The position numbers were made by a program, and so were the translations under genes. This document shows positions 8,659 through 14,751 of a DNA stretch of 31,533 nt, one piece after another. Source of the DNA: Bacteroidota bacterium (GTDB lineage: Bacteria > Bacteroidota > Bacteroidia > Chitinophagales > UBA2359). The notes beneath the pieces are model-generated. The model did no database searches. It saw nothing but the letters and a program-made list of their open reading frames with translations, and had not been told where the DNA came from. The stretch is from NCBI GenBank assembly GCA_020631675.1, contig JAHDGT010000002.1, positions 1 through 31,533 of the forward strand, written 5' to 3'. The first letter of the stretch is position 1. Each line of letters begins with the position of its first letter.

Positions 8659-9633
8659 TTGAACACGCAAGAACAAATCAATACCCTCTTAGCTAAACTA
8701 GCTGACTTACGCCAAGAAATTCACAAAGTGATCTTCGGACAAGAAGAAGTCGTTTCCCAATTGCTCATCAGTCTACTGGCAGGAGGGCATGCTTTAATAG
8801 AAGGCGTACCCGGTTTAGCAAAAACTCTATTAGTAAGTACATTGGCAGAGGCGGTCGACTTATCCTTCAAACGCATACAGTTTACGCCTGACCTTATGCC
8901 GAGTGATATTCTGGGTACAGAAGTCATTCAGCAACACGCCAGCGGACAAACCGATTTTCGTTTTGTTAAAGGACCCATCTTCGCCCATATCGTTCTAGCC
9001 GATGAGGTGAATCGTACTCCGCCTAAAACCCAGGCAGCACTCCTAGAATGCATGCAAGAAAGACATGTCACCTATGCCGGACAGACCTACCCCCTGCCCC
9101 GGCCTTTTTTCATTCTAGCTACCCAAAACCCCATAGAACAAGCAGGTACCTACCCACTACCCGAAGCCCAATTAGACCGCTTCCTGTTGTACATTAAAAT
9201 GCCTTATCCCAGCGAAGAGGACGAACTTAAAGTTTTGAACGCCACCACAGGTGTAAAAAAAGTAAAAGTCAATGCTGTCATTCAAGCAGAAAACATACTC
9301 GAATTACAAGACTACACCCGCCAAGTGAGCATTAGTCCGGATCTGGTCAAGTGGGTCAACCATATGGTAAGATCCACCCGTCCGCATGATAGCCCCTACC
9401 TCTTCATTAAAGAACAAGTAACATGGGGGGCAGGACCCAGAGCAGGACAAGCCCTAATACTTTGCGCCAAAGCCAATGCCTTACTCAATGGTCGTTTCTC
9501 CGTACTAAAAACAGACATTGAAACAATGACAAAACCCGTCCTTCGTCACCGCATTAGATTGAATTACAGTGCCAGTTTAGTACCTAATGCCTTAGAAAAA
9601 CTCATAGAATCGTTAATAGATGCTAGCAAATAA
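8659..9633 (+). CDS. MoxR-family AAA+ ATPase
   Basis: Walker A GVPGLAKT, RIQFTPDLMPSDI, Walker B LADEVNR, ATQNPIEQ.GTYPLPEAQLDRF. TTG start. Confidence 0.93.
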   Translation: MNTQEQINTLLAKLADLRQEIHKVIFGQEEVVSQLLISLLAGGHALIEGVPGLAKTLLVSTLAEAVDLSFKRIQFTPDLMPSDILGTEVIQQHASGQTDFRFVKGPIFAHIVLADEVNRTPPKTQAALLECMQERHVTYAGQTYPLPRPFFILATQNPIEQAGTYPLPEAQLDRFLLYIKMPYPSEEDELKVLNATTGVKKVKVNAVIQAENILELQDYTRQVSISPDLVKWVNHMVRSTRPHDSPYLFIKEQVTWGAGPRAGQALILCAKANALLNGRFSVLKTDIETMTKPVLRHRIRLNYSASLVPNALEKLIESLIDASK

Positions 9634-9699: not shown

Positions 9700-11547
9700 A
9701 TGGCATTTATTGTATCGGCAAGGAAATACCGCCCTACTCGTTTTGACGAAGTAGTAGGCCAACGTACGGTAAGCACTACCTTGAAAAATGCGATCAAGAA
9801 TGGTAAAGTCGCCCAGAGCTTTTTATTCTGTGGACCAAGAGGGGTCGGTAAAACCACTTGTGCTCGTATTCTCGCCAAGGCACTGAATTGCAGCAGCATG
9901 CAAGCTGCATTAGAAAGCGGCAATGCTGTTACAGACGATCAGGTAGAACCTTGCGGCACTTGCAACTCCTGTAAAACTTTCCAAGAACAAGCCTCCCTTA
10001 ATATCTTCGAGCTGGATGCGGCTTCTAATAATTCTGTAGAAGACATTCGCAAACTCATAGAGCAAGTTCGGTTCGCACCGCAAAGCGGGCGCTATAAGAT
10101 ATACATCATTGATGAGGTACACATGCTCTCTCAAGCAGCCTTCAATGCCTTCCTAAAAACCTTAGAAGAACCTCCGCACTACGCCATCTTCATTTTGGCT
10201 ACCACTGAGAAGCACAAGATCATACCTACCATTCTCTCCCGCTGCCAGATATTCGATTTCGGAAGAGTAGCTGTAGCTGATATTGTGGAGCATTTAAAAT
10301 ACATCAGTGAGGATCAAGGCATAACAGCCGAAGAAGACGGACTGCATGTGATCGCTCAAAAAGCAGATGGTGGCTTACGCGATTCATTGTCCATCTTTGA
10401 CCGTATTGCCAGCTTTAGTGGTGGTACTATCAGCTATCAGCATGTTTTAGACAGCCTGCATGTACTGGATTACGACCATTATTTTAAACTGACAGACGCA
10501 TTGCTTGCTCAAGATAGTAGTAGTGTCTTGTTGGCCCTGGATCAAATTCTGAAAGATGGTTTTGAAGGCGATCATTTTTTAATGGGGCTTTGCGGGCATT
10601 TCCGCGACCTATTGGTCTGTAAAAACCCGCGCACCTTGGCTTTATTAGAAGTGAGTCCAAAGCTAAGAGCACGCTATGGTGAGCAGTGTAAAATCACTCC
10701 TACCAGCTTTCTGCTAAGTGCCTTGCAATTGGCTAATGAATGCATGCAAGGCTACAGAGAAAGCCAGAATAAGCGTTTACAAATCGAATTGGTGTTGCTG
10801 AAAATGTGCCACATCACCAATGTAGTGGATCTGGCAAAAGCCGGTGTGCCGACCATGATCGCCGCCCCTACGACCGCATCCGCACCTTCCGTTGAAAAAA
10901 AAAGTGAAGTCGTAAGCAGTACCCCTCCTAAAGCAACTACTCCACCTTCAGTAGAACCATCCACTGATCCTGCGGTACAGCCCGGCAACGATTTGGGCAA
11001 GCAGGTAGATGTCCCTGAAGCACCAGCAAAAGCTAAGAGCCTACTACGTAAAAAGCCGAAGTCGAAAGATGGGCTTGCGATCACTTCTCTAGGTAAGCTG
11101 CATGAAAACCAACGCAAAGAGCAGGAAGAAGCGGAAAAAAATAAATCTTCCCAGCCGAAAGAAGTAATAGAACTCACTGATGAGCTACTAACTTCTAAAT
11201 GGGCAGCATTTACTGCTCCTTTTGACAAAGGCAGTACAGGCGGTGCCATACTCAAGCGAGTAGTGCCTAAGTTAGATCAAGCAAAGCATCAGATCCGTAT
11301 TGAGTTAGCGAGTACATTTGAGATCGAACGGATTAAAATGGAGGCGCACGACTTTCTACAGCAGCTAAAGACGGAGCTGAACAATCCGAACTACCGTTTG
11401 GAGATGCTTATTGACCCAAGCATAAAAGCCGCTAGAGAAAAAGAACGCAAAGCCTACACCCCCAAAGAAAAATACGAGGAAATGTACAAGGCTAATCCGA
11501 AGATCAAAGATTTAGTGGTCAAATTCGGGCTGGAGTTGGATCATTGA
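9700..11547 (+). CDS. dnaX: DNA polymerase III subunits gamma/tau
   Basis: ARKYRP, GPRGVGKTT, Zn-module PCGTCNSC, ELDAASN, DEVHML, KTLEEPP and SRC motifs; Pro/Ala linker; Bacteroidota-type C-terminal domain. Confidence 0.97.
   Translation: MAFIVSARKYRPTRFDEVVGQRTVSTTLKNAIKNGKVAQSFLFCGPRGVGKTTCARILAKALNCSSMQAALESGNAVTDDQVEPCGTCNSCKTFQEQASLNIFELDAASNNSVEDIRKLIEQVRFAPQSGRYKIYIIDEVHMLSQAAFNAFLKTLEEPPHYAIFILATTEKHKIIPTILSRCQIFDFGRVAVADIVEHLKYISEDQGITAEEDGLHVIAQKADGGLRDSLSIFDRIASFSGGTISYQHVLDSLHVLDYDHYFKLTDALLAQDSSSVLLALDQILKDGFEGDHFLMGLCGHFRDLLVCKNPRTLALLEVSPKLRARYGEQCKITPTSFLLSALQLANECMQGYRESQNKRLQIELVLLKMCHITNVVDLAKAGVPTMIAAPTTASAPSVEKKSEVVSSTPPKATTPPSVEPSTDPAVQPGNDLGKQVDVPEAPAKAKSLLRKKPKSKDGLAITSLGKLHENQRKEQEEAEKNKSSQPKEVIELTDELLTSKWAAFTAPFDKGSTGGAILKRVVPKLDQAKHQIRIELASTFEIERIKMEAHDFLQQLKTELNNPNYRLEMLIDPSIKAAREKERKAYTPKEKYEEMYKANPKIKDLVVKFGLELDH
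10895..10915 (+). other. Putative recoding (slippage/frameshift) site in dnaX
   Basis: A9 run (10895-10903) followed by TGA in the -1 frame (10905-10907) and TAA in the +1 frame (10913-10915). Confidence 0.65.
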
Positions 11548-11832: not shown

Positions 11833-14751
11833 ATGAACTGGACAATATTAAAACAAGGAGGCAGTAGTTCAATGCTACTAAGTTGCTTTCTACTTATCCT
11901 CATTAGCATGCAAGTTCAAGCTCAGACCGCTTTTGATAGCGTAGCGGGCGATCCGCTTAAGGTGCAAATGTATACGCTTGACAATGGCTTGAAGGTCTAC
12001 TTAAGCGTAAATAAAGATGAGCCTCGAATTCAAACCGCGATTCCAGTGCGTGTGGGCTGTAAACAAGACCCTCGCGAAACGACCGGTCTTGCTCACTATT
12101 TAGAGCATATGCTTTTCAAGGGTACCGACCAAGTGGGTACTTCTAATTGGGAAGAAGAGAAAGTTTTATTAGATCAGATCCGCGACTTGTATGAAGCACA
12201 TATGAAGGAAGATGAACCCGAAAAGAAAAAAGCCATCTACGCTCAAATCGATAGTGTAAGCTTTGAGGCCTCCAAACTGGCCGTGCCTAACGAGTATGAT
12301 AAGATGGTGTCCTCTTTGGGAGCGAAATATACCAATGCTTACACCAGCACGGATCAAACGGTATACATCAATAACATACCTGCGAACGAATTGGAGAAGT
12401 GGTTAAAGCTGGAAAGCGAGCGTTTTAGAATGTTGGTTTTGCGTCTATTCCACACAGAATTAGAAGCGGTGTATGAAGAATTCAATATGAGTCAGGATCG
12501 CGATGGCAGCAAGGTTTATCAAGCCATGTTGAAGCGTTTATTCCCGAATCACCCTTATAGCATTCCTACGATCGGTACAGGTGAGCATTTAAAAAACCCT
12601 TCTTTGGTCGAGATCCAGAAGTTCTTTGACACTTACTATGTGGCCAACAATATGGCGATCGTGCTGGCTGGTGATTTTGAGCCGGAATCCACCATCAAAA
12701 TGATCAAAAAGTACTTTGGTGATATGCGTTCCGGCGAAGTACCGGAATGGTCTTTCAAACCAGAACCACCCATGACCGAAAACATCACTACTGAGGTGTT
12801 CGGTCAAGAAGCAGGCTATGTGAATTTATACTATCGCTTTAAGGGTGCTGGCTCTAAAGAAGCGAAAATCTTAAAGCTGATGGATGCCATTTTGGCGAAT
12901 GGCCAAGCGGGTTTGATGGACTTGAACCTGATCCAAAAGCAAAAGATCTTAGATGGCGGCTGCTATCAGTATTCTATGGTGGATTACTCCATTCATGTAC
13001 TGAATGGTAAAGCGCGTGAAGGTCAGAGCCTAGAAGAAGTAAGAGATTTGCTACTTGAACAAATTGAACTACTGAAGGCGGGCAAATTCGACGATTGGTT
13101 GATCGATGCGGTGATCAAAGATTTTAAATTATCAGAGATCAAAGGCTATGAAAGCAATTGGCTACGTAACAGAAAGATGGTATCCGCATTCATTGAGAAT
13201 AGACCTTGGTCGGATTATGTGAACGAGATGGACGAGCTGAGCAAGATCACGAAACAGGACATTGTTGAGTTCGTGAATAAGCATTACGACCATTATGTAG
13301 CGGTATTCAAACGCCAAGGAGATGATGATTCTGCCTATAAAGTAGAAAAGCCACCTATTACTCCTATTGAAATGGAACGGGCAAATGGCTCTGATTTTTA
13401 CAATGAATTCAATGCCATGGGTACAGACCGATTGAAGCCTGTATTCTTGGACTATGCGGCAGACATCAAGAAAGAAACACTCAAAACAGGTGTAGATATG
13501 AACTACATCAAAAATGAGACGAATGCGACTTTCAACTTGTACTACATCTTGGATATGGGTACGAGAAATGATAAGATGCTGGGCTTGGCGATCAAATACT
13601 TGCCTTATTTGGGTACCAGCAAATACAGTGCGGAGCAGCTGCAACAAGAGTTCTACAAGTTGGGTTTGAGCTTTGATGTATTCTCTTCGGGCGAGCGTGC
13701 TTATGTGAACTTAACGGGCTTAGACGAATCTTTAGAAGAGGGCGTTGCGCTATTTGAGCATGTACTGGCAAATGTTGTGGCTGATGAAACCGCATTGCAA
13801 AATATGATCGCAGGTGTTTTGAAAGAGCGTGAGGATGCGAAAAGTAACCCCCGTTCTATTTCAAGTGCTTTGTTCAATTATGGAGTCTATGGTAAAAACT
13901 CACCTTTCACACATAAACTGAGCAATGAAGAATTGAAGCAGGTTAAAGCCAGCGAGCTGATCGACCGTATCAAGTCTTTAACCAGCTACGAGCATTATGC
14001 TTTCTACTACGGTAGTAAGGAGATGAAAGATGTTTGTAAGTTGTTAAGCAGCGCACATCAAGTGCCTAAAACACTGAAACCATATCCAGCAGCAGCAACC
14101 TTCGAGCAAAAGGAAACTTTAGAAGACGAGGTGATCTTTGTTGATTATGACATGGTGCAAGCACGAATCATGATGTTGAGCAAAGACGAGCAGTTCACAC
14201 CTAAGCACATACCTTATACTCGTGTATTCGGGGAGTATTTCGGCTCTGGTCTGTCTTCGATCGTTTTCCAAGAGATTCGCGAGAAGCGGGCATTGGCTTA
14301 TAGTGCTTATTCTTTCTTTACCGTACCTCGTAAAAAAGATGAAGCCCACTACTTACGTGCTGGCATGAGTGTACAAGCGGATAAAATGCAGGATGCCATT
14401 ACAGCTATGCGTGGTCTGCTGAATGACATGCCTAAGATCGACCAGCAATTTGAAGGTGCGCGTACTTCCATTTTAAAGCAGATGGAGACAGAGCGGATCA
14501 CTAAAACCAACAAGTATTTCAATTACTTAACAGCTAAAGATCGTGGCTTAGACTATGATGTGCGTAAAGATGTGTATGAGAGCATTGAGAACATGAACAT
14601 TCGTGATATGGAGCGTTTCTTTAACCAGCATGTGAAAGCGAAGCCTTTCTCCTTCTTAGTTACGGGTAAGAAAGATGAACTGGACATGGAATACCTGAAA
14701 TCTTTGGGCAGCTATAAAGAGGCGAGCTTGGATGAGTTGTTCGGGTATTGA
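11833..14751 (+). CDS. M16 (insulinase/PqqL-like) zinc peptidase, single chain, with signal peptide
   Basis: Inverted zinc motif GLAHYLEH, NAYTSTDQTVY and downstream VYEE; second half with IREKRALAYS; hydrophobic N-terminus ending VQA. Confidence 0.93.
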   Translation: MNWTILKQGGSSSMLLSCFLLILISMQVQAQTAFDSVAGDPLKVQMYTLDNGLKVYLSVNKDEPRIQTAIPVRVGCKQDPRETTGLAHYLEHMLFKGTDQVGTSNWEEEKVLLDQIRDLYEAHMKEDEPEKKKAIYAQIDSVSFEASKLAVPNEYDKMVSSLGAKYTNAYTSTDQTVYINNIPANELEKWLKLESERFRMLVLRLFHTELEAVYEEFNMSQDRDGSKVYQAMLKRLFPNHPYSIPTIGTGEHLKNPSLVEIQKFFDTYYVANNMAIVLAGDFEPESTIKMIKKYFGDMRSGEVPEWSFKPEPPMTENITTEVFGQEAGYVNLYYRFKGAGSKEAKILKLMDAILANGQAGLMDLNLIQKQKILDGGCYQYSMVDYSIHVLNGKAREGQSLEEVRDLLLEQIELLKAGKFDDWLIDAVIKDFKLSEIKGYESNWLRNRKMVSAFIENRPWSDYVNEMDELSKITKQDIVEFVNKHYDHYVAVFKRQGDDDSAYKVEKPPITPIEMERANGSDFYNEFNAMGTDRLKPVFLDYAADIKKETLKTGVDMNYIKNETNATFNLYYILDMGTRNDKMLGLAIKYLPYLGTSKYSAEQLQQEFYKLGLSFDVFSSGERAYVNLTGLDESLEEGVALFEHVLANVVADETALQNMIAGVLKEREDAKSNPRSISSALFNYGVYGKNSPFTHKLSNEELKQVKASELIDRIKSLTSYEHYAFYYGSKEMKDVCKLLSSAHQVPKTLKPYPAAATFEQKETLEDEVIFVDYDMVQARIMMLSKDEQFTPKHIPYTRVFGEYFGSGLSSIVFQEIREKRALAYSAYSFFTVPRKKDEAHYLRAGMSVQADKMQDAITAMRGLLNDMPKIDQQFEGARTSILKQMETERITKTNKYFNYLTAKDRGLDYDVRKDVYESIENMNIRDMERFFNQHVKAKPFSFLVTGKKDELDMEYLKSLGSYKEASLDELFGY

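Follow-up and report, generated by a model that had tools for sequence, protein, structure and literature searches.

In Thermus thermophilus, the dnaX gene carries a run of nine A's (A9) on which transcriptional slippage yields both the tau and the gamma subunit, with stops lying in both other frames (Larsen et al. 2000; see PMC1088944 and PMC5009743). Escherichia coli dnaX produces the two forms by a -1 ribosomal frameshift on A_AAA_AAG, stimulated by a Shine-Dalgarno (SD)-like element upstream and a stem-loop downstream of the site (PMC1088944, PMC3711429, PMC5009743), and in Caulobacter crescentus gamma is made from tau by ClpXP proteolysis (cited in PMC5009743 and bioRxiv 10.1101/2022.11.10.516041). 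Within Bacteroidetes, dnaX genes with a run of ten A's (A10) and two open reading frames (ORFs) have been listed for Flavobacterium johnsoniae, F. psychrophilum, Cytophaga hutchinsonii, and Capnocytophaga ochracea, among others (PMC3711429 and its Suppl. Fig. S3). The same study (Antonov et al. 2013) found this layout in several Chlorobi and in Coraliomargarita too, and predicted transcriptional realignment (PMC3711429). Here we analyzed dnaX in a 31,533-nucleotide (nt) stretch of a Bacteroidota genome (GenBank assembly GCA_020631675.1, contig JAHDGT010000002.1, positions 1 to 31,533), hereafter the window. Its A9 run at 10895-10903 probably represents a Thermus-type programmed recoding site, from which tau and gamma would both be made by polymerase slippage.

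The window dnaX resembles that of Thermus in being a single ORF with tau in the zero frame, exactly nine A's after the clamp-loader core, and near stops in both shifted frames. As in Thermus, any change in the number of A's that is not a multiple of three would lead to gamma, and no ribosomal stimulators are needed. The two genes differ in that they belong to different phyla, that the usual run in Bacteroidota is A10 rather than A9, and that slippage was proven by experiment in Thermus, whereas we infer it for the window. The window site is a direct extension of published work (Thermus in 2000, the Bacteroidetes prediction in 2013) and introduces no new principle. Our literature search turned up no description of a single-ORF site from Bacteroidota, nor any test by experiment within the phylum.

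The A9 run and its flanking stops

A first-pass annotation of the window, made from the letters and their translations, had noted nine consecutive A's about 30 codons after the motif ELVLLKMC, with stops close by in both alternative frames, and had predicted products of 402, 404-405, and 615 amino acids (aa). The sequence and its translation confirmed the run, the stops, and all product sizes, as follows (positions of the window).

9700..11547, + strand: dnaX, single ORF (615 codons and stop), templated product tau (ORF list, translation, NCBIfam NF011531, Pfam)
10895..10903, + strand: A9 slippery run at codons 399-402, starting at codon position 2 (G AAA AAA AAA G) (sequence, alignment with relatives)
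10905..10907, + strand: TGA stop of the -1 frame, giving a predicted 402-aa gamma ending VEKKK (sequence)
10913..10915, + strand: TAA stop of the +1 frame, giving a predicted 404- or 405-aa gamma ending VKS (sequence)

In the zero frame, positions 10891-10917 read GTT GAA AAA AAA AGT GAA GTC GTA AGC. The run begins 29 codons past the clamp-loader core, whose motif ELVLLKMC occupies DnaX residues 363-370, and 22 codons past the end of Pfam domain III. Beyond the run, the zero frame stays open for 214 codons, while the -1 frame meets a stop after one codon and the +1 frame after three. The TGA is reached through AAG by one added A, two lost A's, or a -1 ribosomal shift, and the TAA through GTG AAG TCG by one A fewer or two A's more. 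Stops this near in both shifted frames occur at only ~2.5% of positions within the window dnaX.

The A9 run is the sole run of eight or more A's or T's in the 31.5-kb window, compared with an average of 5.1 in dinucleotide-preserving shuffles. The genome to which the window belongs is a metagenome-assembled genome (MAG) of 4.54 Mb in 633 contigs, with a completeness of 98%, and holds 37 A/T runs of at least 9 nt in total. Runs of length 9 (32 observed vs 49 expected from base composition) and length 10 (4 vs 13.7) were depleted, whereas runs of 5-8 nt were 1.6-2.2 times commoner than base composition predicts. Baranov et al. (PMC1088944) interpreted such a depletion of long runs as a sign of selection against slippage during transcription, and put the threshold at ~9 nt for many bacteria. 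The A9 run in dnaX is not due to chance.

Another sense-strand A9 was found in the same genome (contig C424 of G000, C424:2547-2555), at codon ~232 of a 907-codon open frame and in a repetitive context rich in Lys and Gly. Very few of the runs of at least 9 nt in this genome lie deep within long ORFs, as this one does.

Conservation of the A run and nearby stops in Bacteroidota

The first-pass annotation had suggested comparing the A run and nearby stops among orthologous dnaX genes. The ortholog set comprised 29 relatives from the same GTDB family or order and 80 named Bacteroidota genomes, covering the orders Chitinophagales, Sphingobacteriales, Cytophagales, Flavobacteriales, and Bacteroidales. 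The peptide patterns that fetched the 80 named-genome loci excluded the A run. One duplicate was dropped and one locus (L014) was left out of the counts for N's at the critical stretch, leaving 108 informative genes, window included.

Both features proved to be conserved. A run of A9 to A12 was present in 86 of the 108 genes, at codons ~345-399 directly after domain III. Most of these runs were A10 (74 loci), followed by A9 (9), A11 (2), and A12 (1). All three codon phases were used (11, 47, and 28 loci), so that the encoded residues vary while the nucleotides remain constant, and AAG never interrupted the run in orthologs, although 34% of the Lys codons in the rest of the genes are AAG. Constant nucleotides across phases, together with the lack of AAG interruptions, indicate that selection acts on the nucleotides.

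As in the window, tau lies in the zero frame in 71 of the 86 run-bearing genes, among them A10 genes of Pedobacter, Chitinophaga, and Aquimarina (L033, L067, and L059), and early stops were enriched in both shifted frames of these 71. In the -1 frame, a stop was found within 7 codons in 96% of them (51% at their other positions) and within 3 codons in 77% (30% background). The +1 frame had a stop within 7 codons in 89% (38% background).

In the other 15 run-bearing genes, the zero frame is closed by a stop just past the run, and the conserved tau C-terminus lies in another frame, the -1 frame in 12 genes and the +1 frame in 3; examples of this two-ORF layout are L024, L028, L079, L092, and L100. 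Each frame state was shared clade-wide and therefore does not stem from random assembly errors. Since tau is off the zero frame in these 15 relatives, slippage must occur often enough to provide the cell with an essential protein. A tree built from the N-terminal 345 residues of 109 genes required tau to have moved into the -1 frame at least five times and into the +1 frame three times, and the run to have been lost at least seven times. Together, these results make it highly probable that the A run of dnaX is a conserved recoding site.

The 15 two-ORF genes among the 108 sampled loci have the layout described by Antonov et al., and the window shares with the published Bacteroidetes cases the phylum, the poly-A motif, its place at the gamma/tau border, and the predicted mechanism. 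Unlike those genes, in which the zero frame gives gamma and slippage gives tau, the window dnaX is a single ORF in which tau is templated and gamma would arise by slippage. A frameshift finder of the GeneTack type is blind to this single-ORF layout, yet it is the majority state in our sample (71 of 86). The proposal of the first-pass annotation that this dnaX encodes both tau and gamma by recoding thus gained support from the conserved run and stops, but the idea itself was not new, having been predicted for Bacteroidetes in 2013 (PMC3711429).

Some dnaX genes in the sample showed other unusual features. Two uncultured Bacteroidales MAGs (L069:2590-2640, CAMZFW010000113.1; L109:2590-2640, ONQD01000012.1) carry a dnaX in which the poly-A run is missing and codon 364, right at the gamma/tau border, is an in-frame TAG. 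The TAG is followed by a conserved stretch of ~30 nt, and beyond this region the same frame is open for 201 or 254 codons, up to the conserved tau C-terminus. We regard these two genes as candidates for programmed UAG readthrough. In a third Bacteroidales MAG (L080:2600-2650, CAMVOL010000002.1), also lacking an A run, the zero frame ends with TAA at codon 381 and tau goes on for 249 codons in the +1 frame; CT-AGG-CAA-TCA sits five codons ahead of the TAA. A contig titled 'uncultured Rhizobium sp.' (L098, CAZYBT010000031.1) has a dnaX that falls within the Bacteroidota tree and carries an A10 run, and was probably mis-binned or mislabelled.

Transcriptional slippage as the proposed mechanism

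We propose that, when RNA polymerase passes the nine A's, the nascent RNA sometimes realigns on the template, which would generate mRNAs with A8, A10, A11, and so on beside A9. mRNAs with 9 or 12 A's would be translated into full-length tau of 615 or 616 aa, including the linker and the KH-like domain. One added A would lead to termination at the TGA at 10905-10907 (402 aa), and one A fewer or two A's more to termination at the TAA at 10913-10915 (404 or 405 aa). These short products would be gamma, consisting of the clamp-loader domains I-III and ~25 linker residues, without the tau-only C-terminus.

The main rival is a programmed -1 ribosomal frameshift as in E. coli, in which transcription is faithful and two tRNA-Lys slip on A_AAA_AAA (10896-10902), followed by AAG TGA and a 402-aa product. 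The zero-frame codons GAA AAA AAA AGT do contain the heptamer A_AAA_AAA in the right frame, with the -1 stop one codon later, and the -1 stop is also the tighter one among orthologs (median of 2 codons vs 4 for the +1 stop). The only tRNA-Lys gene that we found has the anticodon UUU, although the assembly is incomplete with 19 tRNAs and a CUU species may exist. The route is also the one taken by E. coli dnaX (PMC5009743), with which the window shares the gene, the border, and a gamma ending one codon past the shift at UGA.

Unlike E. coli dnaX, however, the window has no AAG as the A-site codon, which is AAA here (A_AAA_AAG is absent), and it lacks an SD-like element, a stem-loop, and an Rfam match. 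No SD-like element was found in the 22 nt upstream of the window run, and an SD-like pentamer was found in only 7 of the 86 run-bearing orthologs. SD pairing is little used by the mRNAs and ribosomes of Bacteroidota, which we counted against the ribosomal route. Folding of the upstream 45 nt gave -1.1 kcal/mol (z = +1.6), the downstream 60 nt had a z-score of 0.0, and a 141-nt fold around the site had a z-score of -0.53; over the 86 loci, the mean z-scores were -0.5 (upstream) and -0.4 (downstream). By these scores, no downstream hairpin was supported in the window and none was consistent among the 86 orthologs. An Rfam scan at E-values up to 10 returned three unrelated rows with E > 2, none of them close to threshold, and the DnaX frameshift element was absent from the matches. 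These results agree with the first-pass annotation, which had seen no strong downstream stem or SD stimulator.

The properties of the run itself also count against the ribosomal route. Seven A's would suffice for the ribosome, yet 9-12 are conserved. The +1 frame stop is conserved as well, which argues against a purely -1 ribosomal mechanism, as such a mechanism would leave the +1 frame free. Three relatives need a +1 frame change for tau. Frame shifts in both directions have served as a criterion for polymerase insertions and deletions (PMC3711429), and the two flip directions seen in the relatives fit insertions and deletions by RNA polymerase. We therefore consider E. coli-type frameshifting an unlikely explanation of the site, although minor -1 ribosomal slippage on A_AAA_AAA may contribute to the same 402-aa product.

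Transcriptional slippage is favored because 9-12 A's are kept where fewer would do, both shifted frames are constrained, tau lies in either shifted frame in relatives, and stimulators are lacking. The preference of the first-pass annotation for this mechanism was thus supported indirectly, by the missing stimulators, by a run of 9-10 nt instead of 7, and by relatives with tau in the -1 or +1 frame. We consider it likely that the site works mainly in this way. We infer from sequence comparisons that slippage occurs, that most of it is transcriptional, and that the cell makes and uses gamma.

Points against a functional site and further alternatives

Several observations weigh against reading the window run as a working slippage site. 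Any run of 9-10 A's holds A_AAA_AAA in every phase, and phase variation alone does not exclude a ribosomal -1 shift. The slippage of a Bacteroidota RNA polymerase on A9 is presumed from the Thermus-type precedent. The orthologs are related to each other, which inflates binomial p-values for the stop enrichment, although the effect is still large. A search of public runs with the window sequence gave three DNA contig sets, all from one algae-metagenome sample, and no RNA run. Among 5.8 billion proteins, the window DnaX formed a cluster of one from a single contig, with no relative closer than ~52% identity and no gamma-length variant; the window lineage is poorly sampled.

The window DnaX belongs with Bacteroidota of the order Chitinophagales, and its family groups with Saprospiraceae loci in the tree. 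Its five nearest relatives, all of the same family (L002, L003, L004, L007, and L008), have no run at all and encode tau in a single ORF of 583-635 codons. The window run itself has the minority length A9, not A10. In the linker alignment, 'VEKKS' of the window matches the 'EKK' of the A10 runs in L005, L006, L009, and L012, in the same phase and with the same preceding G, which suggests that the window A9 was inherited from A10 and shortened by one A-to-G change. Part of the sub-clade therefore does without the site or has replaced it, and the window lineage could be in the course of losing it.

A second rival follows this line and takes the run as a relic or neutral Lys-Lys-Lys stretch, which descends from an ancestral A10 and is unneeded here, with slippage as tolerated noise. 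The run-less nearest relatives, the at least seven losses across the sampled tree, and the A9 length where A10 is usual are in its favor, and gamma is dispensable in some bacteria, as tau-only Caulobacter is only mildly defective (bioRxiv 10.1101/2022.11.10.516041). However, the window run is uninterrupted, and its shifted-frame stops, one and three codons away, are nearer than at nearly all other positions in the gene (~2.5%). A run that shortens an essential protein to no benefit would be expected to vanish quickly, as A/T runs of at least 9 nt have elsewhere in the genome, and A9 suffices for ~50% gamma in Thermus (PMC1088944). A mere relic thus appears quite improbable to us, and a programmed slippage site remains the preferred reading. 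The proteolytic route of Caulobacter is another way to two DnaX forms that acts after translation, without a signal in the nucleotides. The window gave no hint of it, and the run-less relatives may use ClpXP-like proteolysis in place of the slip site.

An assembly or sequencing artefact, with another true number of A's (e.g., A10 and a two-ORF gene) or with run variation at the DNA level as in phase variation by replication slippage, is very improbable: homopolymers are error-prone, the MAG has 633 contigs, two Logan contigs of run X2 end within the A run, and L014 (G016:C250) reads N at codons ~372-415 where its sister genome L006 has A10, owing either to a gap in the assembly at this homopolymer or to withheld bases, but an independent Logan DNA contig from run X1 of the same algae-metagenome sample, of low depth (3.8), spans the A9 without an indel and with tau in frame, the zero frame after A9 leads into 214 codons, the last of which encode the conserved tau C-terminus and extend the NF011531 match to position 614, and a slip-prone run would lie at the gamma/tau border either way, which would hardly alter the biology.

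Domain organization of DnaX and gene neighborhood

The identification of the gene as dnaX in the first-pass annotation was upheld by a full-length match to the NCBIfam equivalog NF011531 ('DNA polymerase III subunit gamma/tau'), which scored 718 bits against a cut-off of 685 over residues 3-614 and 614 model positions. Pfam domains were PF13177 (DNA_pol3_delta2) at residues 21-188, PF22608 (lid) at 195-237, and PF12169 (gamma3, domain III) at 248-377, and TIGR02397 (dnaX_nterm) covered residues 5-370. The protein divides into three parts.

9700..10830, + strand: clamp-loader core (AAA+ module, lid, and domain III; residues 1-~377), common to tau and the predicted gamma (Pfam, TIGR02397)
10904..11151, + strand: low-complexity linker rich in Pro, Ala, and Lys, residues ~403-484, tau only (translation)
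11152..11544, + strand: tau-only C-terminal folded domain, residues ~485-615, predicted to be KH type II-like (tau domain V-like) (AlphaFold model, fold search)

The linker after the A run was unalignable among relatives and was modelled with low confidence (predicted local distance difference test, pLDDT, of 53-64 at model residues 1-40). The AlphaFold model of the tau C-terminus, built on a 25-ortholog alignment, had a mean pLDDT of 84, with values >90 across most of model residues 50-170. The top PDB fold matches of this domain, weak (E-values from 5e-3 to 3e-2) but consistent with each other, were the N-terminal domain of DciA and domain I of DnaA. Both have been reported to have the type II KH fold in common with DnaX domain V (Marsin et al., PMC8216460). 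A Pfam search of the tau C-terminus at E-values up to 1 gave no match, and a 25-sequence profile compared with PDB sequences gave nothing meaningful. Like gamma of E. coli and Thermus, the predicted gamma would retain the clamp-loader core but not the C-terminal domain specific to tau. Binding of the polymerase by the tau C-terminal domain of the window is an assumption based on the family.

We dismissed an antisense ORF at 10752-11255 (167 codons) as a by-product of the reading frame of dnaX. The neighbors of dnaX in the window are a MoxR-type AAA_3 ATPase of 324 aa (8659-9633, + strand) and a two-module M16 peptidase of 972 aa (11833-14751, + strand). Neither ybaB nor recR was found downstream of dnaX in the window.

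Implications of the predicted dnaX recoding in Bacteroidota

Poly-A slippage, not E. coli-type frameshifting, appears to be the usual route to two DnaX forms in Bacteroidota. A wider scenario is that the poly-A site is ancestral to Bacteroidota, probably to the Bacteroidota-Chlorobi group, that it works with roughly even efficiency and leaves the DNA frame nearly free to flip, and that the Saprospiraceae-like sub-clade of the window is giving the site up (A10 to A9 in the window, none in its five neighbors). We put this scenario forward tentatively and regard it as rather doubtful in its entirety. If the sub-clade is indeed losing the site, its members would either do without gamma or make it by a different route that has yet to be described.

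The site also matters for annotation. The remark of the first-pass annotation that ORF callers miss the dual coding was fair, as gene callers give just the 615-aa tau here; in relatives with flipped frames, they give a truncated 'gamma/tau' and an orphan ORF. Recognizing the site would allow both products to be annotated. The repeated flips and losses of the site in Bacteroidota constitute a natural experiment on the need for gamma.

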